A stretch of 64,000 bases of DNA from an uncultured Akkermansia sp. (lineage in GTDB: Bacteria; Verrucomicrobiota; Verrucomicrobiia; Verrucomicrobiales; V1-33). Shown in pieces: positions 1 to 46,073 of this stretch (positions are counted from its first letter, which is position 1; every line of letters begins with the position of its first letter). Location: NCBI GenBank assembly GCA_964523105.1, contig CAZFZN010000018.1, forward strand, positions 21,786 through 85,785, read 5' to 3'. A model generated the notes under the pieces. It saw only the letters and a list, made by a program, of their open reading frames with translations, was not told the origin of the DNA and made no database searches. The position numbers and the translations under genes were made by a program.

Positions 1-741
1 CCTCCTCCGCGCGACGACCGCAGCCGGCAACAATACGAAAAGGCTCCACCGGCGGCAGCGCCCGCACGGCACTCTAACACCGTCATGCAGACTCCGCCCG
101 CGGAGCCGCCTGTCGTGGAACCACCCGCAGAGGAGGAAGGCCCAAACAGCCCGCTCAAGTTCGCGCTCAAAGACCTGCAAACCGATCATCCCTACCTCGC
201 CGAACGCGGCCTCACGGCTGAAACGGCGACGGAGTTTGGACTCGGCTACTGCAAGCGCGGCACGATGGCGAGCCGCGTGGTCATTCCCATGCACAACACC
301 AGAGGTGAGTTGGTGGGCTACGCAGGCCGATGGCCGGGAGAACCGCCGGAGAAGCGCCCGAAATACAAACTGCCAGAGGGCTTCAAAAAGATGAGCGAGG
401 TTTTTAGTCTGCACCGCGCCCTGCGCGAGCCGGACGAATCCCCGCTGATCGTAGTCGAAGGATTCTTCGACGTGATGAAGCTCTGGCAGCTTGGCTGGCG
501 ACGCACCGTTTCGCTGATGGGCAGCCACCTGTCGGCGACGCACGAGCGGCTGCTGGCGGAAGCCGGCAGTCACAGCGGGATCGTCCTGCTGTTCGATGAA
601 GACGACGCCGGACGCGCCGGCAGAGCGAAAGCCCTGCTGCGACTGGCGACGAAGGCTTTCGTCAAAGCAATGCCCCTGCCGCGCGAAGGCGTGCAGCCGG
701 ATCACCTGACGGAAGATGAACTTCACACCCTGCTCGACTGA
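1..741 (+). CDS. Toprim-domain DNA primase-like protein (DnaG/phage type), probably 5'-truncated by the window edge
   Basis: The frame is stop-free from nt 1; the first ATG is at 85. Motifs: 'HPYLAERGLTAETATEFGLGY', 'VVIPMHNTRGELVGYAGR', and acidic Toprim-like 'LIVVEGFFDVMKL' and 'VLLFDEDDAGR'. The Pro/Glu-rich linker at the N-terminus suggests a zinc-finger domain upstream of the window. Confidence 0.65.
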   Translation, partial: PPPRDDRSRQQYEKAPPAAAPARHSNTVMQTPPAEPPVVEPPAEEEGPNSPLKFALKDLQTDHPYLAERGLTAETATEFGLGYCKRGTMASRVVIPMHNTRGELVGYAGRWPGEPPEKRPKYKLPEGFKKMSEVFSLHRALREPDESPLIVVEGFFDVMKLWQLGWRRTVSLMGSHLSATHERLLAEAGSHSGIVLLFDEDDAGRAGRAKALLRLATKAFVKAMPLPREGVQPDHLTEDELHTLLD

Positions 742-742
742 C

Positions 743-1072
743 ATGGACGTTCACTGCACCACCTGCGGAGAGCCGTGGGACACGTATCATCTGTGGCAGG
801 ACGCCATTTGGGAGACCGGCCTCGATGAAGAACAGGTCAGCAAGTGGAAACAGTTGCCGACGGAGGAAAAGCTCAAGCCGTTCTACCGGCGCGAGTTCGA
901 ATCCGCCGGCTACGAATTCGGCCAGTCGGTGATCAACGTCATCCGCTGCCCCGCCTGCCCGCCCGACGCGAAACCCGATCCGGCCAAACTCTACATGAAG
1001 GCTGAAATCGAAGCGATGCTCGCCGGAGACGAAGACGGACTCGCCTGCCACTACGAAGACCTCGGCTTATGA
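743..1072 (+). CDS. Small Cys-rich hypothetical protein (possible zinc ribbon)
   Basis: The ATG at 743 lies 2 nt after the primase stop (739-741). Two CxxC pairs are present: 'HCTTCGEPW' and 'IRCPACPPD'. No family recognised. Confidence 0.5.
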   Translation: MDVHCTTCGEPWDTYHLWQDAIWETGLDEEQVSKWKQLPTEEKLKPFYRREFESAGYEFGQSVINVIRCPACPPDAKPDPAKLYMKAEIEAMLAGDEDGLACHYEDLGL

Positions 1073-1377
1073 TCCTGCCATCCGAACACGCCAGCGGAGC
1101 GACTTCCGCCCCCGTGAAATTCCCGCTTGGACAGTTGTGCGCCACGCCTGCTGCCCTTGCCGAACTCACGCACGAGGACATTCAGACTGCCCTGAAACGC
1201 CATCTCCGTGGCGACTGGGGCGATCTCGACAAGGACGACAAGACCGAGAATGAGTTGTCGCTCCAAAAAGGATTTCGACTGCTCTCCGCCTACCAGGGCG
1301 CGAACGGCACGAAGTTCTGGATCATCACCGAAGCCGACCGCTCCGTCACGACCGTGCTCCTTCCCTCGGACTACTAA
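1069..1377 (+). CDS. Conserved small plasmid/ICE-associated protein of unknown function
   Basis: The start overlaps the upstream stop (ATGA at 1069-1072). The motif 'RGDWGDLDKDD..NE..L..GFRLLSAY......FWIITEADRSVTTVLLPSDY' matches, from memory, a ~100-aa family recurrent on plasmids and integrative elements. Confidence 0.6.
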   Translation: MILPSEHASGATSAPVKFPLGQLCATPAALAELTHEDIQTALKRHLRGDWGDLDKDDKTENELSLQKGFRLLSAYQGANGTKFWIITEADRSVTTVLLPSDY

Positions 1378-1429
1378 AATGCACATTCGCTCTCCCGAGA
1401 TGAAGAGCCACAGGCGAACTGTCATCGCC

Positions 1430-1655
1430 CGCCAAACCTCTCGCGCAAGAAAGCGCCGTCCCGTCCGGGACGCGAGAGTGTAATCACATCCCGGACAACC
1501 TGCGGAAACAGGCGGACGGCAATAGAGAGTGATGCCGAGTAAGTCAATGAATGCAACCGTGCGAACGGTGCTCATGATTTGCCCTGCCTCAGCACCGGAA
1601 AAATCCGGTGAATCGAAACGGCCCCGTTCAGCGACAGACTGAACGGGGCTTTTTG
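1430..1655 (+). ncRNA. Candidate structured RNA (or ori/oriT-like region) ending in an intrinsic terminator
   Basis: A series of hairpins on the + strand. They are: 1438-1445/1471-1478 (CTCTCGCG/CGCGAGAG) enclosing an inner GTCCC/GGGAC stem; 1556-1569 (ACCGT-GCGA-ACGGT, GNRA loop); 1593-1610 (CACCGGA-AAAA-TCCGGTG); and the terminator hairpin at 1622-1648. No convincing ORF. Confidence 0.25.
1622..1655 (+). terminator. Rho-independent terminator
   Basis: A perfect 10-bp stem CCCCGTTCAG (1622-1631) / CTGAACGGGG (1639-1648) with a 7-nt loop, followed by CTTTTTG. Confidence 0.55.
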
Positions 1656-1975
1656 CTGTGGAATAGCATGCCTTGAGTCGGTCAAACAGAATGCGGCTGC
1701 GGGCGTTGTTATGCGCGTCACCGATCCCATATTGATCGGTCAAATTTCGAATAGCAGACCCGGATCACTGTGGTCGGACTATAGGAGTTTCCCCGATTTT
1801 TTGCCGCTTACAGTTGAAGGCTGTCACGACTGACAACAAACCGTGTATATCCTGGTGGGAGTCGCGGACGGAACCATTACTTCATCGAATATGATCAACG
1901 TCTCAAAAGATTTTCGCGCTGCATTCCGCCGGGAACCCCGAATCTCTTCCTGAGCCACAGCATTTCGACCAGGTT

Positions 1976-4360
1976 ATGAATGTTCTGCCCCCGCTTCCCT
2001 TGACTCAGCGCCGGCGCGCTGATCTTGTGAGTCTGGGTGCGGGTCTGATGATGTTTGGTGCAGGACATCTGCTTTCGGGAGCGCTGTCCGAGTCCCAGCG
2101 CCCGGGAATTCTGGTGCTGTTGAGTATCGTCGTGACAGCTGCAACTGCAGGAGCTGTGGCAGTGGGGTTGGCCGGACAACGGGAAACGGCTGCCGATTGG
2201 CAAGCGGCGCGGCTGGGCGCGAGGACAGGACTGTTTTCCGCTGCTCTGAGTGCCGGAATGCTGGTGCTGGCCGCGAAACTGTCCGGAGCGGAGGGCATTC
2301 TTTCCATCTGGCTCGCAGCAGCGCTTTGCATTTTGCCGGGGGCAGTCTGTGGCATGGGGGGCGCCTCGATGGGCTTCAAATTATCGGCCGGAACCAGCCC
2401 GGAATCCGGGACGCGCGCGGAGGCGCCGTCGGTGTCAAGTGGCACCGGGGGTATCTCCTGGTTGGCATTGCCAATTTGGGGCCTCGCAGTTTGCGGCATG
2501 AGTGCGCCTCTCTATCTGAATTCCTGGCAGCGCTATTCTCCGCTTTTGAAAATCCAGGCGGTGCCGGGCTCGTCGGCAAAGCCAGCAGAGCCGGTGGAGC
2601 CGGCGCTAACTGTGGCTCCACCACAGCCACCCCCTCCGCCGTTTGAATTCACGCCGTCTTCGGAACTGGGCAGCACCAAGCCGCTTCAATGGGAGATATT
2701 CGCGCACATGACCCTGGCGGAGCTTGACGGAGACGGCCCTCTGGCGTTCACAGCAGACGGCCGGTTCGTGGCCGGAATCGCATCGGGGGATGTGGTGATT
2801 TACGACATCCACACCCTCCGCACCGAAAACACCTGGACGATGGGGTTCCCTGTGAATGCGCTCGCCTTCTCACCGGACGGCAAACAGCTTCTGCTCGTGA
2901 GCGGGGAGTCGCCGCCGCGCATCGGGGTGCTGCGAAGTGAAGGCTCCCGCGTGATCATGCTCCCCCAGCCCCGCAAGCGTCTCGTGCCCGCCGAGCAGCC
3001 GGTCTGGCTTGGCCCGAACGACGTGGTCTTCCTGAGTTCCGGCGCGGTTCCCGCCCGACTTGACCTGGCATCGCTTGAAATCAATCCCGCTGCGACTGAG
3101 GAAAGCTGGAAGCGCCGGTCGAACACTCAGCTGGACAAGTGGACGGTGGAGGGGCAGCCGACCTGGCCGGAGCGTTCCGCCTGGCAGTTCGCAGCGGTGC
3201 GGTTCGCAACCGAAACCGAGCTTCCGGAGGTCGAGAGTGTGACAGATATTTGGCCCATGCGGTTCGGACTGGCGCTCGGGATTATCGACCGGACCCGCGC
3301 CCTCTCGCGGATGTTCCCGAGCATTGATTTGGCAGCGGGCGACCGGTTTTTCGCCACTCCGAACGGCTCCATGTTTGTCAGGTGCCGGGGACGCAGAGTG
3401 GAGATATTCTATTTTCAACCGTCCGCCGCGACACCACAGTCGGCATGGTCCGTGACGATGCCCTGCGACCTGAATGACCTTCAGGACCCGGTCATTAAGC
3501 AGGCCGTCGAGGAGAAGGCGCTGTGCGCGTTCGCTTACCGCCCGCTCGTCAATCCGCTGAACAATCAGGTCATCGGGCCGGACCGGGGCCGCGTGCTCGC
3601 TTCAGTGAGGATCGCGACGTGGCAGGGCTCGCAAGCACTTTGCGCCAGCGACCTCCACTGCGATGACCCGTCAGGCGAGATCGTGATCGCCGACCCGCAC
3701 CGGTGGCACGGATCCCGTCCGGAGTTGCTCAGGATGCCGGTTCCGCACCGGTGGTGGTCCGCCGCGAAGCCCGCCGAGTTCTCACAGCGATCAACGCCGC
3801 TGCCTGTGCTCGACAATCAGCCGAGAGTGGACACGCGATTCGAGCGCGGAGCAGTCCGCATCACGGACATTCGCGAATACAGACCGCCCCCTCCGTCGCT
3901 GCCGGGGCCGCCGTCTCCGGCACAGCCTGCGGTTCCCACCGTTCCGGCATCCGCTCCTGCTCCCCCTGCGAACGATGGCGAATTGATTCACCGGTTCATC
4001 ATTGAGCACCACCGCAAGGCATCGGCAGGAGACTTCGCGGGCATTGCGGCGGACTATGCCGACCGCGTCGAATACCTCACGAAGGGTACGGTCACCCGCG
4101 CCTTCATCGAACAGGACGCGCGGAAGTACCACGAGGCTCACAGCCGTGTCAGGGAATGGAGCCCGGAGCACATGACCGTCCGCAAGGTGGCTCCCGGCCG
4201 GTACGAGGCGGAGTATGTGCTGCACTCGGAGACTGTCCTCGCCAAAGACGGCGTCACCAGCCGGACCACCGTTCCTCTTCGGCTGGTGATCGTAATGCAG
4301 GACGGAAAACTCAGGATCGTGAAGCAGGTCAGGATTCAGCAACCCGGTAAAAAGCCATGA
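1976..4360 (+). CDS. Polytopic membrane protein with beta-propeller-like central region and NTF2/SnoaL-like C-terminus (unknown function)
   Basis: The N-terminal ~190 aa are strongly hydrophobic, with about five TM segments (e.g. 'GILVLLSIVVTAATAGAVAVGLAG', 'ILSIWLAAALCILPGAVCGMGG'). A Pro-rich linker 'PPQPPPPPFEF' follows, then TolB/WD40-like strand motifs 'FTADGRFVAGIASGDVVIYD' and 'ALAFSPDGKQLLLVSG'. After a second Pro-rich linker, the C-terminal ~120 aa ('ELIHRFIIEHHRKASAGDFAGIAADYADRVEYL') look NTF2-like. The stop overlaps the next start (ATGA 4357-4360). Confidence 0.7.
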   Translation: MNVLPPLPLTQRRRADLVSLGAGLMMFGAGHLLSGALSESQRPGILVLLSIVVTAATAGAVAVGLAGQRETAADWQAARLGARTGLFSAALSAGMLVLAAKLSGAEGILSIWLAAALCILPGAVCGMGGASMGFKLSAGTSPESGTRAEAPSVSSGTGGISWLALPIWGLAVCGMSAPLYLNSWQRYSPLLKIQAVPGSSAKPAEPVEPALTVAPPQPPPPPFEFTPSSELGSTKPLQWEIFAHMTLAELDGDGPLAFTADGRFVAGIASGDVVIYDIHTLRTENTWTMGFPVNALAFSPDGKQLLLVSGESPPRIGVLRSEGSRVIMLPQPRKRLVPAEQPVWLGPNDVVFLSSGAVPARLDLASLEINPAATEESWKRRSNTQLDKWTVEGQPTWPERSAWQFAAVRFATETELPEVESVTDIWPMRFGLALGIIDRTRALSRMFPSIDLAAGDRFFATPNGSMFVRCRGRRVEIFYFQPSAATPQSAWSVTMPCDLNDLQDPVIKQAVEEKALCAFAYRPLVNPLNNQVIGPDRGRVLASVRIATWQGSQALCASDLHCDDPSGEIVIADPHRWHGSRPELLRMPVPHRWWSAAKPAEFSQRSTPLPVLDNQPRVDTRFERGAVRITDIREYRPPPPSLPGPPSPAQPAVPTVPASAPAPPANDGELIHRFIIEHHRKASAGDFAGIAADYADRVEYLTKGTVTRAFIEQDARKYHEAHSRVREWSPEHMTVRKVAPGRYEAEYVLHSETVLAKDGVTSRTTVPLRLVIVMQDGKLRIVKQVRIQQPGKKP

Positions 4361-5094
4361 TTGGATTCTTCAAGCGGACCAAGTCGGTAGTGCAGGCGCA
4401 CTGGTATGCGCCGATGCTGGACTACGAAACGGACGCCGCGGAATTCTACGCGGCCATCAAAGCCGAGGTCGGCAGCCGGGAATTTCCCGGCGTGGAAGTT
4501 TCGCATATCACCTTCAAGGAGGGCGGCCTGCTCTCAAGTGCCCGAGAGTATCTGCGCATCCGCCGCGAGCGGCTGCTCTTCGACGTGGGTTGCGGGCCGT
4601 TCGGCAAATGCTGGTATTATTCCTGCCGCGGCTGCATCCTCCCCCGCCGCATGACCTTGTGGGAGATTCTGCTCGCTTTCGCCACCATCGGCAGTTTTGC
4701 CCTGCTCTACATCATGTCCTTCGGCATGACCATCGGCCTGATTGTTCTGGGTGCGACACTCATCGCCATCGGAACGCTGCTGATGCAGGCGGGCAAATGG
4801 CCGGGACTCGATGACTTCCTCACCAATCTGCCGGTGGTGGGAGGCATCTACGAGCTGTTCTTCCGCCGGGAAACCTATCACCGGCAGGACACGCGGCTCG
4901 CCTTCTGCGATCTGGTAAATCACTTTATCCGCCGCAAGGTGGAGGAGGATGCTCTCGCACGCGGGCGGCAGGAAGTGCAGTTCATCGAGCAGAAGGACGT
5001 GCAGCAGCCGATGGGCTACAAAGACCTCGCAAAGGATGTTCTCCACCAGTTGATCGAAAGCACGAAGGATGGAAAGCCGAAGAAGCACGCATGA
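4357..5094 (+). CDS. Hypothetical 2-TM membrane protein
   Basis: 245 aa. It has a central hydrophobic pair ('LWEILLAFATIGSFALLYIMSF', 'IGLIVLGATLIAIGTLLM') between soluble N- and C-terminal regions. It is translationally coupled on both sides (ATGA at 4357 and 5091). No family recognised. Confidence 0.65.
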   Translation: MIGFFKRTKSVVQAHWYAPMLDYETDAAEFYAAIKAEVGSREFPGVEVSHITFKEGGLLSSAREYLRIRRERLLFDVGCGPFGKCWYYSCRGCILPRRMTLWEILLAFATIGSFALLYIMSFGMTIGLIVLGATLIAIGTLLMQAGKWPGLDDFLTNLPVVGGIYELFFRRETYHRQDTRLAFCDLVNHFIRRKVEEDALARGRQEVQFIEQKDVQQPMGYKDLAKDVLHQLIESTKDGKPKKHA

Positions 5095-8000
5095 GCACGG
5101 TGCAGGAAAAGCTGGCTGAGAACTTCCGGCGCTGGGCCTCGCGCGGGTGCGGGAAGCTGACATTCCCTGAGCCGGTGTCCCCGCGGCCTCCGTTTGTTCC
5201 ATTCCCTGGCCATCGCCTGGCCGTCGCTCGTCAGCCTGATACGGGACGGCGGGCGACGTTTCTTTCCCGCCTGACGGATCGCGTGACGCAGGCGATTGGC
5301 CCGCCAACCGGGCGGGAAATCGCCCTCATCGAAAATGAAGTGGATGAACCGGATCCGGACTGGCTCGGATGGGATGAACCTGAACTGGTGGAGCTTTCCC
5401 TGCTGTTGCCGCCCGATTTCACGGCCAGTCAGGAAGCGATGGCGCATTTTCTGTGCAGTATTTCGCTCGCCAGCCAGCCGGTGACGCTGGAGTGCCTGGG
5501 AACGCAGGGCAGGGTGACGGTGCAACTCTGCACGCATCTTGAAGATGCCGATCTGGTAGCCGGACAGTTGGCGGCCCATTTCCCGGAAATCATTTGCCGT
5601 CATTCCATGGGAGGAATGGATACCGTCTGGGGTCCTCCTGATTGTGAGGATGAGCGTGTGGTGATCGAGTTCGGACTCGCCGGTCCGTTCATGCTGCCCC
5701 TGGCCTCTGCCGGAAAGTCCGATCCCTTCGTTGGACTAACCGGCGCGCTGGCCGCGCTGAATGCGGAAACCGCAGGCATTTATCAGGTGATCTTCACACC
5801 GCTGAGCGAGCCGTGGAGTGTCCATGCCCTGGCCGCAGTGACTCGCGAAGACGGCAAGCCCTTCTTCGATGATGGTGCCGAACTCGTGAAAGGGACGCGG
5901 GAGAAGATGTCCCGCCCGCTTTACGGCGTCATCGTTCGACTCGCGGCGCGGGCTTCCTCGTTAAGTGAAGTCTGGCAGGTGGTTCGCCGCATGGCGGCAC
6001 CGCTGCGCCTTTTCAAACGCCATGAGGGTAACGAACTCGCGCCGGTGCCCAATGACGACTATGAGCACCACGGCCACTGTTACGACCTCGCCCTGCGCCG
6101 CTCCCGGCGTGTCGGAATGATTCTCAGTCAGGATGAACTCATCGGCTTCATCCGATTCCCCACCGCTGCGGTGCGCACGCCCGCTTTCATCCGTGTGGAC
6201 GCCGGCACTCGCGCGGTTTCGCAGCCGGCATCCTCCACCAGTGGCGTGTGCCTCGGTATCAATGAGCACGCCGGCCTGAGCGAGGAGGTCTGGCTGACTG
6301 CAGAACAGCGGGTGCGCCACCTGCACATCATCGGCGGCAGCGGCAGCGGCAAAACCACGCTCATGCTCAATCTGCTCCAGCAGGACATCGAGAATGGGGC
6401 CGGATTTGCCCTCCTCGATCCTCACGGTGACCTTGCGGACAAAGTGGTGGGCATCATTCCCCTGGAGCGCATGGATGACGTGGTGCTCCTTGATCCGGCC
6501 GACGAGCAATTCATCGTCCCCTTCAACTTTCTGTCGGCACACAGCGACTTTGAGAAGACGCTGCTGGCCTCGGATTTGGTGGCCATCTTCCGCGCTCAGT
6601 CCACGTCATGGGGCGATCAGATGAATACCGTCTTTGGAAACGCGATCCGCGCTTTCCTCGAAAGCAGTGAAGGAGGCACGCTGGCCGACCTCCGCCGCTT
6701 CCTGCTCGATCCCGACTGGCGCGAGCGATTCCTCACGACCGTGACCGACCCGGAGATTGTGTTTTATTGGAAGCGCGGGTTCCCGCAACTCGGCGGCAAC
6801 AAGAGCATCGGCCCCATCCTGACACGCCTGGAGACTTTTCTCGCACCGAAAGCGATTCGCTACATGGTTTCGCAGCGCGAGAACAGGCTCGACTTTGCGG
6901 AGATGATGGACAGCGGCAAGATTTTCATCGCTAAACTCCCGCAGGGTCAGATGGGCAGAGAGAACTCTCACCTGCTGGGCGCGCTCCTCGTCGCCAAACT
7001 CCAACAGATGGCCATGAGCCGCCAGCGCATGGACAGTGCGCAGCGCCGCCCGTTCTTCGTTTATGCCGATGAGTTCCAGAACTTCATCTGCCCCAGCATG
7101 GCGGAAATTCTCAGCGGTGCGCGCAAATACGGCATGGGCTTCATCCTGGCTCATCAGGACTTGCGTCAGTTAGAGCGCGACAAAGAAGTGGGAGCGGCGG
7201 TGCTTTCCAACGCGTTCACCCGCGTCGTCTTCCGCGTCGGCGACAGCGACGCCCGCACACTGGCAGAGGGCTTCGCCCACTTCCAGCCCCGCGATCTCCA
7301 AAATCTGTCCATCGGCAAAGCCCTCTGCCGCATCGAACGCGCCGACAACGACTTCAACCTGACCGTTCCATTGCCGAATGAGCCTGACGCTGGTGAAGCC
7401 GCCACCACCCGGCTCATTCATACCAGAGCCTCCCGTCTGTCCCATGCGCGCCCCCGCGCCGAAGTGGAAGCGGAGCTGTATCCGCCAACCCCTGAGCCAC
7501 CGACGAAGCGCAACAAAGAAACGCCGCCGCCGGAACCGGAAAATCCTCGGAAGGAAAGTTCCCCTGCGCCCGCTCCCGTATCACCGGAAACGCCACCGGT
7601 GCCGTCTTCGGTTTCAGAGACGGACACCGAGGAGCGTCCAGCGGCCCCTTCGCACAATCCCGGCAAAGGCGGGCCACTGCACATCACGCTGCAAAAGCTC
7701 ATCAAAGCCGCCGCGGAGGCCAGAGGCTTCCGCGCCGTCATTGAGTCACCCACAGGCACCGGCAAGGAAAGTGTCGATGTCGCGCTGCTGCGCGAAGACC
7801 AGCGCATCGCCTGCGAAATCTCCATCTCCACCACTGCCGAACAGGAACTCGGCAATGCCCGCAAGTGTCTCAGCCTGGACTTTCAACTTATCGCCCTCAT
7901 CCTCGCCGATGACCGCCGCCGCACCCAACTCAGCAATGCCATCGCCACCAGCTTTTCGCCCTCTGAACAGTCCCGCCTGCGCTGCTTCACCGCGGAGGAA

Positions 8001-8180
8001 TTCATCGCCTATCTGACCACCCTGCCGGAAGCGCCCGTCTCCAAACCCGGAGAGAAGACCATCCGCGGCTGGAAAGTAAAACGCACCCACGTCAAGCTGA
8101 CCGATGAAGAGCGCGCCGCCAAATCAAAGGCAGCCTTCGAGTTGCTGGCGCAGGAGATGAAACTGCCTCCGGAGGCATGA
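5091..8180 (+). CDS. FtsK/HerA/VirD4-superfamily P-loop ATPase (T4CP-like) with unknown N-terminal domain and PD-(D/E)xK-like C-terminal tail
   Basis: Walker A 'IIGGSGSGKTTLMLN' is followed by 'LLDPHGD' (HerA/VirB4/T4CP style), and Walker B is 'FFVYADEFQNF'. 'LAHQDLRQL' and 'VVFRVGDSDARTLAEGF' resemble the TraD/TraG C-terminal region. There is no TM segment, and the ~400-aa N-terminal domain is unassigned. A Pro/Glu-rich linker (nt ~7440-7660) precedes the tail 'GFRAVIESP..VDVALL..IACEISIS'. Confidence 0.85.
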   Translation: MSTVQEKLAENFRRWASRGCGKLTFPEPVSPRPPFVPFPGHRLAVARQPDTGRRATFLSRLTDRVTQAIGPPTGREIALIENEVDEPDPDWLGWDEPELVELSLLLPPDFTASQEAMAHFLCSISLASQPVTLECLGTQGRVTVQLCTHLEDADLVAGQLAAHFPEIICRHSMGGMDTVWGPPDCEDERVVIEFGLAGPFMLPLASAGKSDPFVGLTGALAALNAETAGIYQVIFTPLSEPWSVHALAAVTREDGKPFFDDGAELVKGTREKMSRPLYGVIVRLAARASSLSEVWQVVRRMAAPLRLFKRHEGNELAPVPNDDYEHHGHCYDLALRRSRRVGMILSQDELIGFIRFPTAAVRTPAFIRVDAGTRAVSQPASSTSGVCLGINEHAGLSEEVWLTAEQRVRHLHIIGGSGSGKTTLMLNLLQQDIENGAGFALLDPHGDLADKVVGIIPLERMDDVVLLDPADEQFIVPFNFLSAHSDFEKTLLASDLVAIFRAQSTSWGDQMNTVFGNAIRAFLESSEGGTLADLRRFLLDPDWRERFLTTVTDPEIVFYWKRGFPQLGGNKSIGPILTRLETFLAPKAIRYMVSQRENRLDFAEMMDSGKIFIAKLPQGQMGRENSHLLGALLVAKLQQMAMSRQRMDSAQRRPFFVYADEFQNFICPSMAEILSGARKYGMGFILAHQDLRQLERDKEVGAAVLSNAFTRVVFRVGDSDARTLAEGFAHFQPRDLQNLSIGKALCRIERADNDFNLTVPLPNEPDAGEAATTRLIHTRASRLSHARPRAEVEAELYPPTPEPPTKRNKETPPPEPENPRKESSPAPAPVSPETPPVPSSVSETDTEERPAAPSHNPGKGGPLHITLQKLIKAAAEARGFRAVIESPTGTGKESVDVALLREDQRIACEISISTTAEQELGNARKCLSLDFQLIALILADDRRRTQLSNAIATSFSPSEQSRLRCFTAEEFIAYLTTLPEAPVSKPGEKTIRGWKVKRTHVKLTDEERAAKSKAAFELLAQEMKLPPEA

Positions 8181-8184
8181 GCCG

Positions 8185-9393
8185 CTACTTCGTTTCCGAG
8201 CCCAGCGAAGGCACCGCCCCCACCGCCTTCCGCAGTGTTTCCAACTCCGTGTGAGTATAGCGGTCATTGATCGCCTTCGAGGCATGTCCGGTAAGCCGTT
8301 GCCGGAGTTCCTGCGACACCCCGGCATTGGCCATCGCCGAATTGAAGGAGTGGCGCAGTGAGTGGAATGTCAGCGAAGAGCGGTTCTTCCCTTTCGCTCC
8401 CCCCTTCTGAGTGACGGTTGCTTCGATTCCCGCGCTCTTCATGAGGGCCTTGAATCGCTCTGAAAGACCGTGGGCGCCGCCAATCTTCCGGGCTGTGGCG
8501 ACGGGAAAAACAGTAGCGGCGGCGGATTTGTCCGGGGCGCCATCCAGCCATTTGCGGAGCTCGGGATGAATGGGAATTTCGACAAATCGGCGGGTCTTGC
8601 GCTGGCCGAAAGCAAGGCTCATTCGCTTAAGGTCCACATTCTGCCAGCGCAGCGCCACCAGATCGCCAAGGCGCGCCCCCGTATAGTAACCGGCGAGGAT
8701 CAGTCCTTTCCAGTTTCGGTCGGCTACTCGAATGAGCTTCGCTACATCCTCGGGAGTGAACACGCCTTTCTCGATGGCGTCAGAACTTACCATCTCCACC
8801 GCTTCCGCCGGGTTGGTCTGGATTAGGCCCTGTCGGCGGGCAAGGTTGAGTGGTCCCCGCAAAATCTTGACCGCTATGTTGGCTGTCGCCGCTGCCCTCC
8901 CTTCCTTCAGCAGTTGATCGCGATACTTGCGGATGTCGGCTACCGAGAGCGCGGCGAGAGGCTGGCTGCGTTTGCCCGCGGGCAGGAACTTTAGAAATGA
9001 TTCGATTACGCCTTCGTAGCGTTCTGCGGTGCCTTTCGCCTTCGCCCCCTTCTTCTCCTCCACCCAGCCGCGCAGCCAGTCTTCGATGCTGGCATTGCGC
9101 AGGATTTCCCCCGTCGAGATTTCCATCATCTTGTTGATGAACCCCTGAGCGGATGATTCAGAAAGCATCCCGCGGGCCGCGAGGGTTGCTGCCTCCTCCA
9201 CCAGATGAAGCAGTCGGCGCTGCTTGTCATCGTCCGGGAGCGCCTTGCGCCCGCGTTTCTCCATCTCGGCTCCCGCCGCTACCGCTTCCGACTTGCTGGT
9301 CTTCTTGGTTGAGAGGTAGCGTCGCCTTCCCGCATTGTCGAAGTAGGAAACCCACCAGTAGGGCGAACCGGTTTTTCGGAAGATAGTAGCCAT
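8185..9393 (-). CDS. Tyrosine-type site-specific recombinase (phage/ICE integrase)
   Basis: 402 aa from ATG 9393 ('MATIFRKTGSPYWWVSYF'). The catalytic-region motifs 'GARLGDLVALRW', 'TFHSLRHSFNSAMA' and 'LTGHASKAINDRYTH' are present. The 141 extra upstream codons in the track ORF run through a tRNA fragment and are rejected. Confidence 0.9.
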   Translation of the reverse strand: MATIFRKTGSPYWWVSYFDNAGRRRYLSTKKTSKSEAVAAGAEMEKRGRKALPDDDKQRRLLHLVEEAATLAARGMLSESSAQGFINKMMEISTGEILRNASIEDWLRGWVEEKKGAKAKGTAERYEGVIESFLKFLPAGKRSQPLAALSVADIRKYRDQLLKEGRAAATANIAVKILRGPLNLARRQGLIQTNPAEAVEMVSSDAIEKGVFTPEDVAKLIRVADRNWKGLILAGYYTGARLGDLVALRWQNVDLKRMSLAFGQRKTRRFVEIPIHPELRKWLDGAPDKSAAATVFPVATARKIGGAHGLSERFKALMKSAGIEATVTQKGGAKGKNRSSLTFHSLRHSFNSAMANAGVSQELRQRLTGHASKAINDRYTHTELETLRKAVGAVPSLGSETK

Positions 9394-9410
9394 GAGTGCG
9401 TCGGGATTTT

Positions 9411-9463
9411 GGCAACAGTAGTGGCAACACTTGAGGATGTCACGGACGTTTTTTGATGTCACG
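9411..9463. promoter_or_regulatory. Short direct repeats between int and att core (candidate arm-type recombinase/RDF sites and int promoter)
   Basis: GGCAACA occurs at 9411-9417 and 9423-9429. GATGTCACG occurs at 9436-9444 and 9455-9463. Confidence 0.3.
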
Positions 9464-9499
9464 TTTCCCGAGAAATCACCAAAATGCAGGGAGGGGGAA

Positions 9500-9534
9500 T
9501 TGTAACACGGGTTCGATTCCCGTAGGGGTCGCCA
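9500..9534 (+). other. tRNA 3'-end fragment (T-arm + acceptor 3' strand + CCA) = putative att core / direct repeat of the integrative element
   Basis: T-stem ACGGG (9507-9511), loop TTCGATT, CCCGT (9519-9523), acceptor strand AGGGGTC, discriminator G and CCA (9532-9534). No matching 5' acceptor strand (GACCCCT), D-arm or anticodon arm lies upstream, so this is not a complete tRNA. Confidence 0.55.
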
Positions 9535-9640
9535 CTCCGGAAATCGAGGGTGAGGAATGCGGCGCGGAGCGCTGAAAAAAGAGCGTGCCTTTTCGGAGTC
9601 TGCCGCTATGACACCCGGCAGCCAAACCTGACCGCTCCGC

Positions 9641-11233
9641 ATGTCCAGATTCCTCCGCCTCGCCGCTGTTCTGCTTCTCTGTCTTTCCGCTTCATCCGCG
9701 CAGGTGGCGCCGCCGGCTCCGGCGCCGCAGAGTGCCCCGGCGGAGAGTGCCCCTGCAGCCGCTGCGACTGTCCCTGACGAAGGGCGGGTGGACAAGAAAA
9801 TCGACGCGCTGTTCAAGCCGCTGGCGGATTTTGCCGGCGAGACGATTTTGCGGCCGGTGAATGTGGCGGGGGTGCAGGTGCCGTGGGTGGTCTTCTGGCT
9901 GGCGGCGGCGGGTTTGTTTCTGACGGTTTATTTCCGGTTCGTGAATGTGCGGTCCTTCCCGCTGGCGATGCGGACGGTGCAGGGAAAATACTCGAAGCCG
10001 ACGGATCCGGGCGAGGTCACGCACTTTCAGGCCTTGAGTGCGGCGGTTTCCGGCACGGTGGGACTGGGGAACATCGCCGGGGTGGCCATCGGTGTCGCCA
10101 ATGGCGGCCCGGGGGTCATTTTCTGGCTGTTTCTGAGCGGATTCATCGGCATGACCACCAAATTTGCCGAGTGCACCCTGGGGGTAAAGTACCGGGAGAT
10201 CGCGAAAGACGGCACGGTGCACGGCGGCCCGATGTATTATCTCAAGAAGGGCTTCCACGAGCGCGGGCGTGCCAATCTCGGTGCGGGTCTGGCATTTTTC
10301 TTCGCGGTATGCTGCGTCTTCGCTTCCTTTGGCGGCGGCAATATCTTCCAGGTGAATCAGACCGTGGCGCAGCTCATCGAGATCACGGGCGGCGAGGGGA
10401 CCTTTTTCTACCGGAACGGCTACGTCGCGGGACTGGTGATGGCGGTGCTCACGGGACTGGTGATCATTGGCGGCATCAAGGGGATCGCGAAGGTCACGGG
10501 CCGGCTCGTGCCCGCCATGTGCCTCATTTATGTGATCTCGAGCCTGCTCGTGCTGGTGGTCAACATCACTGAGATTCCCGCCGCCATCGGGTTGATCGTG
10601 TCGGAGGCCTTCACGTGGAAGGCGGGAACGACCGGCGGCCTGCTGGTGGCGTTCATTTGGGGCATGCGCCGCGCCACCTTCAGCAACGAGGCTGGAATCG
10701 GCTCCGCGCCCATTGCGCACGCGGCGGTGAAGACCTCGAAGCCGGCCAGTGAGGGCGTGGTGGCCCTGCTGGAGCCGTTTGTGGATACCGTCGTCATTTG
10801 CACCATGACGGGGCTGGTGCTCATTGTGACGGGGAATCTCACGCCGCCCGCCGGAGAATTCGCCAACCCCGGCGTCACGATGGCTTCCAATGCCTTCAGC
10901 ACGCTGCACGGGTCGTTCAAGTATATCCTCTTCCTCAGCGTCTTCCTGTTCGCCTTCTCGACGCTCATCACGTGGAGCTATTACGGGCTGCAGGCATGGC
11001 AGTATGTCTTCGGGCGCAGCAAAGCCGCCGCGTGGACTTACAAGCTGATCTTCCTTGCCTTCATCGTCGTCGGCTCCGCCGCCTCACTGGGCAATGCGGT
11101 GGACTTTTCCGACGCCTCGCTCTTCGCCATGAGCATTCCGAATCTCATCGGCGTGTATTTTCTGCTGCCGGTGATCAAGCGTGAGTATCACGACTTCCTG
11201 GAGCACGCGAAGCGGATCGACCACGCGGGCTGA
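9641..11233 (+). CDS. agcS: Alanine/glycine:cation symporter (AGCS family)
   Basis: AGCS hallmark stretches 'QALSAAVSGTVGLGNIAGVAIGVANGGPGVIFWLFLSGFIGMTTKFAECTLGVKYRE' and 'GMRRATFSNEAGIGSAPIAHAAVKT'. The protein is multi-TM throughout. Confidence 0.9.
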   Translation: MSRFLRLAAVLLLCLSASSAQVAPPAPAPQSAPAESAPAAAATVPDEGRVDKKIDALFKPLADFAGETILRPVNVAGVQVPWVVFWLAAAGLFLTVYFRFVNVRSFPLAMRTVQGKYSKPTDPGEVTHFQALSAAVSGTVGLGNIAGVAIGVANGGPGVIFWLFLSGFIGMTTKFAECTLGVKYREIAKDGTVHGGPMYYLKKGFHERGRANLGAGLAFFFAVCCVFASFGGGNIFQVNQTVAQLIEITGGEGTFFYRNGYVAGLVMAVLTGLVIIGGIKGIAKVTGRLVPAMCLIYVISSLLVLVVNITEIPAAIGLIVSEAFTWKAGTTGGLLVAFIWGMRRATFSNEAGIGSAPIAHAAVKTSKPASEGVVALLEPFVDTVVICTMTGLVLIVTGNLTPPAGEFANPGVTMASNAFSTLHGSFKYILFLSVFLFAFSTLITWSYYGLQAWQYVFGRSKAAAWTYKLIFLAFIVVGSAASLGNAVDFSDASLFAMSIPNLIGVYFLLPVIKREYHDFLEHAKRIDHAG

Positions 11234-11436
11234 TCCTGACTTTGCCCACGGCACGCCAGCGGTTCCGGCCGCCCGCCGCGGCCTCCCGAACCGCAGGACG
11301 AGGATGGGAGTCCGGTACGCAGGACCGGCCGCTCGGTATCCGCACTTTTTCCCTGGATGGCCCCGTCATGGTCTTTTAAGCCAAGCCCACGCACTCTCAC
11401 TGCGTCACCACTCCGCCCCCCTTTCATAGTGCTGTT

Positions 11437-14400
11437 ATGACTCTCACCACCGCGATTCGCCGTGCCCTGATTCCGCTGTCCACCTGTCTTCCACTGCTCG
11501 CCGCGCCGGTGGCGGTGGACGATGTTTATACCACTTTGGAGGATACTCCGGCTTCGCCTGAGGGGCCGCCGCTGCTGAGCGTGAACTTTGACGCCGGGGC
11601 CGACGGGTTCACCTACGCGGACAACACCTTCGGGACCAACGCGGGAAACAACGCCGCAGGCAGCCATGAGGCATCCGGAGGATTTGGCAGCTCCGGCGGC
11701 CTTGAGGTGACGGTCGGAAACCGGCCCCCCAACAACAGCGGCGGAGGGCGGCAGTCGTCCGGCGGCTGGCAGCGCACGTTCAATCTCGATGCGGCGGGCA
11801 CGCTGCAGTTCTCCGGCCGCTACCGCCTTCAAACGCTGGGCGGCATGGAGGACAACGAATACGGGGACTTCATTCTCGACGTGGATGGCACCCGCTACGG
11901 TCCCGAGGGCACGGCACCGGCCCTGCGCATCGCCCGCCTGCTGGGCCCGAATGAGGAAAACTCCGGCAACAGCGCCGAGTCCGACAGCGGCTGGCAAACT
12001 TTCGCCCTGAGCATTCCGCTGACCGCCGGCAGCCATACCCTGACGCTCGGCGTTTACAACAATTCCTCGACGGCATTTGGCGAAGTCGTGCAATTGAACC
12101 TGGACGATGTCGTCATCGGGCCGCCGCCGGGCAGCGGCTCGGTGTTGTTCAACGACACCGGCGGCACCGGGACGGTCACGGCGACGCGACTGACCAGCCC
12201 GGCCAACGGAGTGCTCACGTTCGGCGCGAACGGCAACTTCACCTACACGCCCGTGCTGAACTGGAGCGGCACCGATTCCTTCACCTACCGCGCTTCGGAC
12301 AGCACCGGCGCCAGCAACCCCGCTACGGTGACCATTAACGTCACTCCGGTGAATGATGCACCCGCGGGTGGCACTGACAATTACTCGACGGCGGAGGACA
12401 CCCCGCTCACGGTGACGGCTCCCGGAGTGCTCGCGAATGACACGGATGTGGACAGCGCCGTCCTCACCGCCGTGAACGTGACCCAGCCCGCCAACGGCAC
12501 GGTGACACTCAATTCCAGCGGCTCCTTCACCTACACTCCCAACTCAAATCATGAAGGCGTCGATGCCTTCACCTATCAGGTCAGCGACGGGGCGCTGGAA
12601 AGCCCGCCGGTTACGGTGAACCTGACAGTGACCGGCGTCCCGGATGCGCCGGAGACGGCGGACGACACGTATTACACTCCCTCGGGCAGCGCGCTCATCG
12701 TCAATCAGGCGTCGCAGCCGGCCGGCTCGAACGTCACCTTCATCATCGCCGCCCCTGACACTCCCTCCGGCGGCACCGCGCAGCCGGGCGACCCTTGGAA
12801 ATACCTCGACAACGGCACGGACCAGGGCACGGCATGGCAGGCACTCGAATTTGACGACAGCACGTGGAGAACCGGGCGCGGCGAACTGGGCTACGGCGAC
12901 GCCGACGGCGAGAACCGGCCGGAGTTTACCGTGATCGAGGACAATCCGGTGCCGGGTTACACCTCGAATGCCAGCGACCGCTACATCACCACCTACTTCC
13001 GCAAGGTCTTCGAAGTGGAGGACTTCCGCCGCATTTCCGGCCTCACCATGAGCCTGCTGCGCGATGACGGCGCCGTGGTCTGGCTCAACGGCAACCGCGT
13101 CTTCTGGGAGAATGGCCTGAACAACGCCACCTACCAAACCCTCACCAGCGGCAGCATCGGCAACGAAGCCACGCACGAATCGATCCCGCTCACCGGTGCC
13201 GAGCAGTACCTGCGGGACGGCGAAAACGTCCTGGCGGTGGAAATCCACCAGCAGTCCACCAGCAGCTCGGACATGAGTTTCGATCTCGGGCTGACCGCGC
13301 TGGACCGGCCCTACGGCGGCGTTCTGGCCAATGACAGCGATCCGGAGGGCCAGCCGATGACCGCCGCCGTGGTGCAGCAGCCGGCGCACGGCACGCTCAC
13401 CTTCAATGCCAACGGCACGTTCACCTACAACGCCGCCGCCGGCTTCCAGGGCACGGACACCTTCACCTACACCGCCAGCGACGGCAGCCTGACATCTCCG
13501 CCGGCCACGGTCACCATCACCGTCGGCCCGCCCTTCAATCAGCCGCCCGTCGCCGCACCCAACACTTACAATGGCACGGAGGACACCGTGCTCACCGTGG
13601 CGGCGGCGAACGGCGTGCTCGCCAATGACGCGGATCCCGAAAGCCAGCCGCTCACCGCGGTGCTCGTTTCCCAGTCGGCCAACGGCACGGTCGCGCTCGC
13701 ACCGGACGGCTCGTTCACGTTCACTCCGGCTGCCGACTGGAACGGTGCCACCACATTCACCTACCGCGCCAGCGACGGCCTGAAGCTTTCGCCCATCACC
13801 ACTGTCACGCTCAATTTCGCGGCCGTGCCGGATGTGCCCGTGGCCGTGGAGGATGTCTATCGCACCAGCACCGGCACTCCGCTGGTGGTCAGCAGTGTCT
13901 CCCCCGGCACCACCAGCCCGGTTACACTGATCGTGGCCGCCCCGGAAACGACCGGCGGCGTGGCGCAGCCGGGCGACACATGGCGCTATCTCGACAACGG
14001 CACCGATCAGGGCACGGCGTGGCAGGCGATCGATTTCAACGACTCCGGCTGGAAAGAGGGCGCCGGCGAACTTGGCTATGGTGATGAAAGCGACAACCGT
14101 CCGGAGATCACCGTCATCGAGGACGACGACACGCCGGGCTACAGCTCCTCCAGCAACCGCTACATCACCTATTATTTCCGGAAATCCTTCTCCATCGCGG
14201 ACCGGCTGCGCGTTTCCAATCTCAGCATGTCGTTGCTGCGGGATGACGGAGCCGTGGTGTATCTCAACGGCAACCGGCTCCACGCCGACGGCTCCCTCGC
14301 GACCGCCAGTCCCCTGACGTATCTGACGCCGGCGGACAACACTTCCAACGAATCCACGCACGAACTCATCCCGCTGCCCAATGCGGCGCAGCATTTGGTG

Positions 14401-38886: not shown

Positions 38887-39659
38887 ATGGAACTCATCGC
38901 CTTTCAAATCGACATCGCATGGCATGATTTCGAGGCCAATCTCGCAGGGATCACTGCCCTGCTTGAAATTGCCCGCCCGGCTTCCGGCGCGCTGATCGTG
39001 CTGCCGGAAATGTGCCTCAGCGGATTCAGCCGGGAGGTTGCGGCCGCGACGGCGGGCTGCTCTGCGGGCGAAAGCGCCCTGGCAGGGCTGGCAAAAGCCC
39101 ATGGCGTCGCGATCATGGCCGGTTTGGCGGTTCCGGGGACGAACTGCGGCGCGAATGAATCCGTGACGTGGGGGCCTGACGGGCGCGAACTGGCGCGCTA
39201 CCGGAAATTGCAGCCCTTCTCGCTCGCAGGAGAGCAGGAAAATTACCCTGCCGGCGACCGGGTGGTGACCTTTCAATATGGCGGATTCACCATCGCGCCG
39301 TTCATCTGTTATGATCTGCGCTTTCCGGAACTCTTCCGCGCCGCGGCGGTCAAGGGTGCTGAACTGATCGCCGTAGTCGCGAACTGGCCGAACCAGCGTC
39401 AGCACCACTGGACCACGCTTCTCAAAGCCCGCGCCATCGAAAACCAGGCGGCGGTCATCGGAGTGAACCGGGCCGGCACCGATCCTGAATTCACCTACGA
39501 TGGCGGCAGTCTCATCCTCGGACCGCAGGCGGAAGTGCTGGCAGAGGCCGGCAGCGCGCCCGGTTTCATCCGTGCGGAGATCACTCCCGAACTCGTGCGC
39601 GAATGGCGCGACCGCTTTCCTGCACTGCGCGACCGCCGTTCCGACTACGCCCAGCTGTG

Positions 39660-39660
<1 letters not shown>
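38887..39660 (+). CDS. Carbon-nitrogen hydrolase (nitrilase superfamily) protein
   Basis: Glu-Lys-Cys triad contexts 'LIVLPEMCLSGF', 'YRKLQPFS' and 'APFICYDLRFPELF'. The stop overlaps the NRPS start (TGATG at 39658-39662). Confidence 0.85.
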
Positions 39661-45929
<6,269 letters not shown>

Positions 45930-46073
45930 ACTCAGAATCGCCAACTGCCCGCAGCAAGGCCGTCCCGGCCTTGTCGAGTCGCGCCGACACGTCACGCGCG
46001 CTCCAATTGCCATGTGCAACCACCAAGGGCGGGACGCCCTTGCCACGGCTCTCCCGCAATTCCGCACTTCCTC

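Follow-up and report, generated by a model that had tools for sequence, protein, structure and literature searches.

The question raised by this locus is what a nuclease-bearing ATPase of the conjugation class, encoded together with a small partner protein, does for integrative elements in which no mating channel recurs. The locus lies near the left end of a 64,000-nt stretch of DNA from an uncultured Akkermansia sp. (contig CAZFZN010000018.1), which we call the window, and comprises three genes, A, B and C, followed by an integrase. We found that C is a fixed fusion of a VirB4-like N-domain, a motor of the type IV coupling protein (T4CP) type, a Pro-rich linker and a PD-(D/E)xK nuclease, and that B and C form a pair conserved across phyla. 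To judge from their sequences, the elements that carry B-C appear to be a widespread, undescribed family of small (~14-15 kb where whole) integrative mobilizable elements (IMEs). We tentatively propose that B-C could serve as a DNA-processing and translocation module for mobilization of the element, a role that we consider possible rather than secure.

Domain architecture of protein C

The operon consists of three open reading frames (ORFs), the last of which divides into four parts:

1976-4360, + strand: gene A, 794 aa
4357-5094, + strand: gene B, 245 aa
5091-8180, + strand: gene C, 1029 aa
5091-6275, + strand: C residues 1-395, DUF8128 N-domain with a VirB4 N-terminal domain-like fold (AlphaFold2 [AF2] and Foldseek)
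6276-7370, + strand: C residues ~396-760, T4CP-type P-loop motor (Walker A K421, Walker B D660/E661)
7371-7652, + strand: C residues ~761-854, Pro/Glu-rich linker (low conservation and indels in the family alignment)
7653-8180, + strand: C residues 855-1029, PD-(D/E)xK domain with a C-terminal helical extension (AF2 and Foldseek)

At both junctions, the stop of one gene overlaps the start of the next within an ATGA (gccATGAttgg at 4357-4360 for A/B and cgcATGAgcac at 5091-5094 for B/C), in agreement with a preliminary description of the window that had been made from its letters and ORFs; the ATPase motifs quoted there, GSGSGKT (K421), DPHGD, VYADEF (D660/E661) and VVFRVGDSDARTL, are likewise all present in the translation of C. 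There are ~1000 homologues of C, and the 120 listed are nearly all ~1000-1070 aa long. In a representative library, the N-domain occurs in 866 clusters at 50% identity, always at the N terminus of proteins of ~1000-1060 aa or of fragments. The phage and plasmid collections contained no full-length homologue of C.

The N-domain, which the preliminary description had left unassigned, corresponds to Pfam DUF8128 (PF26449) according to the precomputed annotation of homologues, and its predicted fold resembles that of the N-terminal domain of VirB4. The AF2 model, built with 83 homologues, has a pLDDT of 91.7 and a pTM of 0.87, and the top 10 Foldseek matches in the PDB were all TrwK, the VirB4 of R388 (E ~1e-4, probability 1.0, 350-377 aligned columns, TM-score ~0.4). 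C and VirB4 also share their overall order, a ~400-aa N-domain followed by a P-loop domain. Unlike VirB4, however, C has an N-domain that lacks sequence similarity to that family and has no Pfam CagE_TrbE_VirB match, a motor that is nearer to T4CPs and an extra nuclease tail. Kinship of the N-domain with VirB4 at the sequence level was considered and set aside: a profile search of the PDB returned nothing, and hhalign comparisons with R46 VirB4 and F TraC aligned the Walker regions only. Stronger fold matches were to uncharacterised Bacillus phage proteins (BFVD, E 5e-15), and C is collinear with phrog_5156 over residues ~266-797 (E 1e-51). The phrog_5156 proteins, such as Slash U5Q0H6, phage G gp155/gp156 and 0305phi8-36 ORF201, differ from C in being ~550-910 aa long, in having no nuclease tail and in belonging to large Bacillus phages and not to integrative elements. 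In the Bacillus phages Slash, G, JL, 0305phi8-36 and SP-10, we observed a DUF8128-like N-domain joined to a T4CP-like ATPase without the nuclease.

The motor of C matched several Pfam families above their gathering thresholds, namely, TrwB_AAD_bind (4.9e-16, 59 bits against a cutoff of 20.5, residues 403-724), TraG-D_C (7e-7, 29.6 bits against a cutoff of 22), T4SS-DNA_transf (8.5e-6) and DUF87. With these families and Walker A and B motifs that are near-invariant across the family, C resembles the T4CPs TrwB, VirD4 and TraD. Sequence matches in the PDB were weak (DotL, 3.5e-6; TrwB, 0.027), and hhalign gave 92% for the R46 T4CP versus 47% for R46 VirB4; by sequence, the motor is closer to T4CPs than to VirB4. 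It holds a putative all-alpha insertion. A hydropathy scan of C revealed no transmembrane (TM) segment, and its earlier classification as a TM-less ATPase of the T4CP/HerA class was borne out. Plasmids of Streptomyces, Bacillus, haloarchaea and Sulfolobus commonly encode TM-less relatives of this ATPase, and most of the plasmid relatives (226 of 291) lie on plasmids typed non-mobilizable.

The Pfam matches, the name under which databases hold the homologues ('type IV secretion system DNA-binding domain-containing protein') and the presence of a relaxase in related elements all agree with C being simply the ordinary coupling protein of its element, its N-domain and tail being incidental, but we give this explanation very little credence. 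C differs from T4CPs in lacking an N-terminal TM anchor and in adding the 400-aa VirB4-like N-domain and the PD-(D/E)xK tail, and the N-domain and nuclease are found, with invariant residues, in every one of hundreds of homologues. All curated NCBIfam TraD, VirD4 and VirB4 models scored far under their cutoffs on C (SXT_TraD, 42 versus 366 bits; TraD_Ftype, 24 versus 521; conj_TOL_TraD, 23 versus 648; TIGR00929 VirB4_CagE, 29 bits versus a 643-bit cutoff, over residues 645-733 only). Unlike an ordinary T4CP setting, moreover, the elements encode another, plain T4CP-like ATPase as well; this ~400-aa paralogue of the motor of C is TM-less, consists of the ATPase only and aligns to a bona fide T4CP over the whole domain (hhalign 94% to the R46 T4CP, 286 columns).

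The C-terminal tail had been described as PD-(D/E)xK-like, and the models argue that it is genuinely so. The AF2 model of the tail (pLDDT 91.6) has an alpha-beta-beta-beta-alpha-beta core, and its top Foldseek matches were EcoT38I, AF1548, R2 RLE, Bax1, Can2 and Hjc; the structure searches proposed in the preliminary description, run on the models of the N-domain and the tail, therefore led to TrwK/VirB4 and restriction endonuclease folds, respectively. Among 70 homologues, H864, E885, D896 and E919 never vary and E909 and K925 hardly do, and the modeled tail has both the core and the conserved acidic residues in strands 2 and 3 by which a PD-(D/E)xK domain is recognized. Several family members have weak Pfam matches to SfsA, CoiA_nuc or Mrr_cat in this region. 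Judged by residue conservation, both the nuclease site and the Walker site of C look active, and nicking by the tail is possible. We also considered the tail as a MOB_C relaxase and rejected this, as hhalign against the Replic_Relax family of the elements themselves gave a probability of 1.5% and C has no PF13814 match.

The B-C pair and its elements

Protein B has a soluble N-part (~98 aa), a 2-TM hairpin (~99-146 by hydropathy) and a helical C-part. Conserved residues are W16, R63, Y65, R67, R70, C78 and S89 in the N-part and Y174 and D178 in the C-part, of which R63, Y65, S89 and D178 are invariant; no Pfam, PADLOC, NCBIfam, PHROG or PDB match was found for B. The arrangement of B and C recalls that of VirB3 and VirB4, in which a small 2-TM protein is encoded immediately 5' with an overlapping stop and start: virB3 adjoins and often overlaps virB4 and coevolves with it (PMC12857230). 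Unlike VirB3, B is 245 aa long with conserved soluble domains, and unlike virB4 operons, the B-C operon has no VirB6/8/9/10 genes. A second parallel is the motor TraJ of pIP501, which, like C, has no TM segment and is accompanied by a separate small 2-TM protein, TraI, proposed to be its anchor (PMC12857230). In four loci (L010, L013, L025 and L036, such labels denoting related loci), an extra short B-like gene (142-145 aa, 2 TM) stands in tandem with the full-length B, just upstream of it.

To survey the neighborhood of C, one genome per species was scanned, which yielded 193 relatives of C; the counts given here come from 80 loci of these. The loci belong to Verrucomicrobiota, Acidobacteriota, Bacteroidota (Chitinophagaceae and others), Planctomycetota, Desulfobacterota, Chloroflexota, Sumerlaeota, a sponge-symbiont lineage and more. 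The immediate upstream neighbor of C is B in 72-74 of the 80, in at least 8 phyla, with a gap of -4 to +28 nt in nearly all, and the recurrence of this adjacency with tight gaps indicates an operon pairing beyond chance. The pairwise divergences of B and C are strongly correlated (Spearman 0.81), and those of C and the adjacent serine recombinase are also correlated (0.64; Mantel p = 0.002).

The preliminary description had treated the trio as the unit and as cargo of the element. Neither point holds, given that B-C alone is conserved across phyla and forms part of the backbone, while A occupies a variable slot and is present in only ~11 of the 80 loci, all of them close verrucomicrobial relatives. 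The full trio does exist outside the window, in ~10 genome loci and 8 metagenome loci, which answers the earlier question of whether the three genes co-occur elsewhere. The metagenome search from A gave 11 loci, in 8 of which A is followed directly by B and, where the contig extends far enough, by C; in 2 others (L089 and L092), A-like proteins of 924-993 aa stand without B-C by serine recombinase fragments, and A is therefore not strictly tied to the module. The earlier view of A as polytopic and propeller-like was supported. A has ~5 Ala/Gly-rich TM helices (hydropathy scan; within the first ~180 residues, with 3-5 TM in homologues), a Pro-rich linker, a beta-propeller, a second Pro-rich linker and a conserved ~130-aa C-terminal domain. 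The family profile of A matched YVTN/WD40/TolB propellers in the PDB (1l0q, 4e-11), and Pfam propeller matches were weak; the label NTF2-like for the C-terminal domain would be a guess from one weak SnoaL match. Identity of A to its relatives is 23-46% versus 75-79% for B and C in the same locus. In L086, the closest relative, the values are 46% for A, 79% for B and 75% for C, such that A evolves much faster than its neighbors, which at the sequence level suggests diversifying selection on a periplasmic protein. The slot 5' of B holds an A-type gene in ~11 loci, an opposite-strand gene for a PEGA-domain protein in ~8 and neither in many others. A conserved VirB6-like polytopic protein at this position was considered and discarded, the slot being heterogeneous by TM scan.

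A recombinase was found in 61 of the 80 loci. Large serine recombinases (Resolvase, Recombinase and Zn ribbon) lie 3' of C in 57-62 and often abut a truncated comM/yifB-like gene, and a tyrosine integrase takes their place in ~10 loci, including the window. The preliminary placement of the operon in an integrative element accordingly stands, with the recombinase context and an att-like right end (below). Several genomes have two copies (L047/L055, L013/L036, L011/L018 and L017/L050). In L064, L067, L068, L075, L078, L059, L045 and L047, a second, divergently oriented serine recombinase lies beside the short ATPase gene; the position of B-C between two recombinases in these loci (Bacteroidota and some others) suggests tandem or nested elements or a two-recombinase system.

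The proximity of B-C to the recombinase, which it immediately adjoins in ~40 loci and with which it co-diverges, would also suit an FtsK-like role in maintaining the excised element, whether by circle resolution or segregation, by processing of replication intermediates with the primase or by coupling of excision and integration. Junction resolvases are numerous among PD-(D/E)xK enzymes, the fold matches of the tail include Hjc, and the elements encode a primase and thus probably replicate after excision. We nevertheless judge this role improbable: C has neither an FtsK_SpoIIIE nor a KOPS-binding gamma-domain signature, in the Acidobacteriota loci L030 and L035, C and the recombinase lie as much as 8 kb apart, with cargo between them, and maintenance explains neither B nor the second ATPase.

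Other recurrent backbone genes encode the short ATPase, a zf-CHC2/Toprim primase, ArdC (ArdcN plus MPTase-PolyVal), a Replic_Relax protein and small ORFs. Among the 51 loci with at least 9 kb of upstream sequence, 35 hold the short ATPase, primase, ArdC or Replic_Relax (21, 17, 10 and 10 loci, respectively). The closest syntenic relatives, L002, L003 and L051, contain the whole element in ~14-15 kb, in the order short ATPase, ArdC, relaxase, primase, small ORFs, A, B, C and recombinase, and an Acidobacteriota block (L028, L030, L032 and L035) has the order short ATPase, B, C. One locus, L071, has three tandem ArdC-like genes ~5.5-7.3 kb upstream of C. Replic_Relax (PF13814) belongs to the MOB_C relaxase superfamily, and the combination of a serine integrase, MOB_C and VirD4 is a known IME class (PMC5357655). 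This streptococcal IME class 8 shares with the related elements a serine recombinase, Replic_Relax/MOB_C, a T4CP-like ATPase and the lack of mating-pore genes; our elements differ from it in adding B-C, a primase and often ArdC, in occurring in Verrucomicrobiota, Acidobacteriota, Bacteroidota and other phyla, and, in the window copy, in having swapped the serine recombinase for a tyrosine integrase at a tRNA/tmRNA-like site.

The absence of relaxase, VirB4 and other type IV secretion system (T4SS) genes reported for the window has two parts that fared differently. That no T4SS channel set accompanies the operon holds more widely: no T4SS channel family was among the 25 most frequent families listed in a Pfam survey of 146 upstream neighbor proteins, and the TM scan and Pfam survey found no conserved polytopic or channel genes across the loci. 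The missing relaxase, in turn, is probably an edge effect, as the window cuts the element at its left edge, and the MOB_C relaxase, ArdC and second ATPase of relatives lie just upstream of the primase; in L002, L003, L051 and others, the short T4CP-like ATPase, ArdC and Replic_Relax genes fall in the region that corresponds to DNA left of base 1. The homologues of C do not appear to be routinely encoded beside complete T4SS and relaxase sets, the situation that would have made C an ordinary coupling protein in the preliminary description, with no channel family recurring and Replic_Relax in 10 of 51 loci.

Without channel genes, the elements might instead constitute a minimal, self-sufficient DNA-transfer machine working between diderm cells, built from C on a VirB3-like B, the T4CP paralogue and, in the lineage of the window, A, with a composition unrelated to that of canonical T4SSs and dispensing with a VirB6-B10 channel. 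A, with its membrane domain, periplasmic propeller and C-terminal domain, would then hold the gene position of VirB6 in the prgH-prgI-prgJ order of pCF10. We consider such a machine highly improbable; if real, it would be a Gram-negative counterpart of single-ATPase TraB transfer. TraB, the FtsK-like protein of actinomycete elements, likewise belongs to elements with an integrase, a replication gene, a ring ATPase with a DNA-recognition or DNA-processing domain and no T4SS. In contrast to TraB, C has no FtsK_SpoIIIE match, the hosts are diderm and non-mycelial, and the elements carry a MOB_C relaxase and ArdC, which are hallmarks of single-stranded DNA conjugation.

The fusion of an ATPase to a nuclease with intact catalytic residues raises the main alternative, that B-C (with A here) is an inter-element or anti-phage conflict module. 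The translocase would load on foreign DNA, be it phage, plasmid or a competing or helper element, the fused nuclease would degrade it, and B (and A) would be an envelope-associated sensor or regulator. We regard this as rather unlikely, yet it merits a detailed comparison. Such a module would resemble the HerA-nuclease, DndH/SspH-type and Hachiman/DdmD-type ATPase-nuclease defenses, and HerA-DUF4297, Sir2-HerA, NurA-HerA, DndH/SspH with their C-terminal ATPase and mad8 of MADS all combine, like C, an ATPase of the ring-translocase class with a nuclease of the restriction endonuclease fold. PADLOC matched C to mad8 (3e-19, 67 bits), DndH (5e-5) and HerA (2e-4), but these matches, at ~60 bits, reach only the generic P-loop domain. 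Those to HerA, DndH and SspH span 40-75 residues around the P-loop or Walker B (E 5e-5 to 0.06), the short ATPase paralogue scores like C on mad8, and neither A nor B has a PADLOC match. MADS is an eight-gene operon, mad1-mad8, that includes a methyltransferase (10.1101/2023.03.30.534895). The window operon has no other mad genes and no DndFG, Sir2 or methyltransferase partners, and the defining partner genes of the MADS, Dnd, Ssp and HerA systems are all missing. Membership of C in a named defense system was rejected on these P-loop-level matches, and the original statement that the trio is no named system is consistent with both PADLOC and our literature search, which retrieved no description of a B-C-like module. 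Compared with HerA-type defenses, C lacks the HAS-barrel N-domain, has its nuclease fused and not as a separate subunit, and belongs with B to an element backbone and not to island cargo.

The surroundings of B-C speak on both sides of the conflict interpretation. The 146 upstream neighbors are heterogeneous and include DNA methylases, a type I S subunit, restriction-modification and defense genes, SAVED, RadC, transporters and host genes, and in one annotated locus, TCAD9 plus HD fill the slot held by A in the window; TIR also occurs near the variable slot. This defense-rich variable slot, the fast evolution of A, as is usual of arms-race proteins, the absence of channel genes, the N-domain plus ATPase relatives in lytic phages and the mostly non-mobilizable typing of the plasmids with ATPase relatives would all fit a conflict module. 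B-C, however, is an invariant backbone, whereas the actual defense cargo of these elements varies, and the pair co-diverges with the recombinase and is almost never found outside these elements.

Element boundaries and neighboring genes in the window

The remaining features of the element in the window are the following:

1-741, + strand: DnaG-like primase (Toprim), 3' part, cut by the left edge of the window; element backbone
716-1072, + strand: small conserved element ORF, 118 aa (tblastn matches in 5 related loci, same position)
1069-1377, + strand: small conserved element ORF, 102 aa, cluster 4 (tblastn, 14 related loci)
1620-1650, + strand: intrinsic terminator (12-bp stem with 8 GC pairs, then TTTTTGCTG, a T-run)
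8185-9393, - strand: tyrosine integrase (Pfam Phage_integrase 4e-20, Phage_int_SAM_5 4e-9)
9509-9534, + strand: 3' tRNA/tmRNA-like fragment (T-arm, acceptor and CCA; GGGTTCGATTCCCGTAGGGGTCGCCA, unique in the window)

The primase (Pfam Toprim_2, 5e-12; NCBIfam dnaG, 2e-30) is 50-66% identical to the C-terminal part of ~360-aa zf-CHC2 plus Toprim primases from 19 related loci, and its frame is open from base 1 of the window, so that the window must cut the element. Of the two ORFs that follow, the 118-aa ORF had no Pfam or PHROG match, and the 102-aa ORF, the homologues of which lie directly 3' of the primase in the 14 related loci, had no Pfam match. The non-coding stretch of ~600 bp noted earlier 5' of A measures 598 bp (1378-1975) and lacks homologues of the small genes present at this place in relatives, but it contains the intrinsic terminator. 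By sequence, this strong terminator ends the primase and small-ORF operon and separates it from A-B-C, which would thus be a transcription unit of its own. Its promoter region is presumably 1660-1975; a search for a consensus sigma-70 promoter 5' of A found none.

On the other side of the operon, the integrase that the preliminary description had reported is convergent with C and 60-62% identical to the integrases at the same place in L001 and L086. Between the integrase and a host Na:Ala symporter gene, which starts at 9641, lies the tRNA/tmRNA-like fragment. ARAGORN found no full tRNA or tmRNA gene for it, and Rfam at the gathering threshold reported nothing in window positions 1-12000; below gathering, positions 346-363 of the Rfam tmRNA model match the fragment with an E of 0.0016. 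Similarity to related elements ends near 9522. From its sequence, the fragment is probably an attachment site (att) remnant that marks the right end of the element, and the intact att target gene would be expected beyond the window, at the element's left end. The integrase thus sits at the element's end beside a probable att site, as expected of an IME.

Beyond the element, the window contains a 3456-aa ORF (11437-21807, + strand) with repeated Big_9, cadherin-like and lamin-tail domains, a CotH kinase-like domain and a beta-helix, which looks from its domains like a host surface adhesin. Farther along are a nonribosomal peptide synthetase (NRPS) gene (39603-45929, + strand; C-A-T-C...) and a hybrid polyketide synthase (PKS)-NRPS gene (46014-55226, + strand) with the domain order KS, AT, class-III aminotransferase, C, A, T and TE. 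The predicted layout of 39603-55226 matches that of iturin/mycosubtilin-type lipopeptide synthetases, an unusual find in a GC-rich verrucomicrobial genome.

A possible role in mobilization

The case for B-C as a mobilization module combines the T4CP Pfam domains and the TrwK-like N-domain of C, the coupling and co-divergence of B and C, the mobile-element genes around them and the constancy of B-C beside variable genes. We envision C as a soluble motor of the VirB4/VirD4 class, probably a hexamer, with an active-looking endonuclease on a flexible linker. B would be its obligate partner, and in the lineage of the window, its 2-TM hairpin may tether the motor to the inner membrane, by analogy with VirB3 for VirB4 and with TraI for the TM-less TraJ of pIP501. 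After excision of the element by the integrase, the B-C module would cut or nick the DNA of the element and drive it to a mating channel that a conjugative system resident in the same cell provides in trans. In doing so, it would act with the ATPase-only T4CP paralogue and, in the sublineage of the window, also with the MOB_C relaxase, ArdC and the primase. A would be a fast-evolving, lineage-specific envelope accessory, cotranscribed with B-C and outside the conserved core. Hexamer formation, binding of B to C, membrane tethering, the nuclease substrate and the role in transfer are all predictions of this model.

Several observations weigh against mobilization as the role of B-C. A second T4CP-like ATPase and a relaxase would on their own suffice for mobilization, so that B-C may do something else, and the MOB_C relaxase and ArdC are each present in only ~20% of loci (10 of the 51 with at least 9 kb upstream). 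The N-domain plus ATPase architecture also occurs in lytic Bacillus phages, which do not conjugate, and the fusion of a nuclease to a translocase is a trait more typically seen in conflict systems. Nor does the tail of C specifically resemble the MOB_C relaxase of the elements (hhalign 1.5%). B was rejected as a VirB3 homologue, with an hhalign probability of 0.1% and only spurious G-protein-coupled receptor matches in a PDB profile search. Many Bacteroidota and Desulfobacterota versions of B have the TM hairpin deleted, and some of these carry a TM segment at the N terminus instead; the earlier description of B as a 2-TM protein is therefore right for the window but lineage-specific, and membrane tethering is plausible in the window's lineage and not family-wide. 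Our literature search also returned no mention of DUF8128 or PF26449.

In summary, this system is assembled from parts of familiar types (a T4CP/VirB4-class ATPase, a PD-(D/E)xK nuclease and an IME), and what is new is the fixed fusion in C, its obligate partner in B, the association with a second ATPase and an element family that spans multiple phyla. The core of this family consists of a pair of conjugation-class ATPases, of which one carries a fused nuclease, and an uncharacterised partner, with no mating channel. The VirB4-like N-domain ties many unannotated phage, plasmid and archaeal 'T4CP-like' proteins into one architecture, and the variable slot beside B-C is a collection site for cargo, including defense-type genes, under either the mobilization or the conflict interpretation. 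If B-C is a conflict module, it would be a new ATPase-nuclease system made from conjugation parts and carried as the backbone of a mobile element. If B-C drives transfer, it would represent a new route by which small elements hijack or bypass T4SSs and would give DUF8128 a function. In either case, the family bears on the movement of integrative elements in Verrucomicrobiota, Acidobacteriota, Chitinophagaceae and other poorly studied phyla, in which little is known of it.

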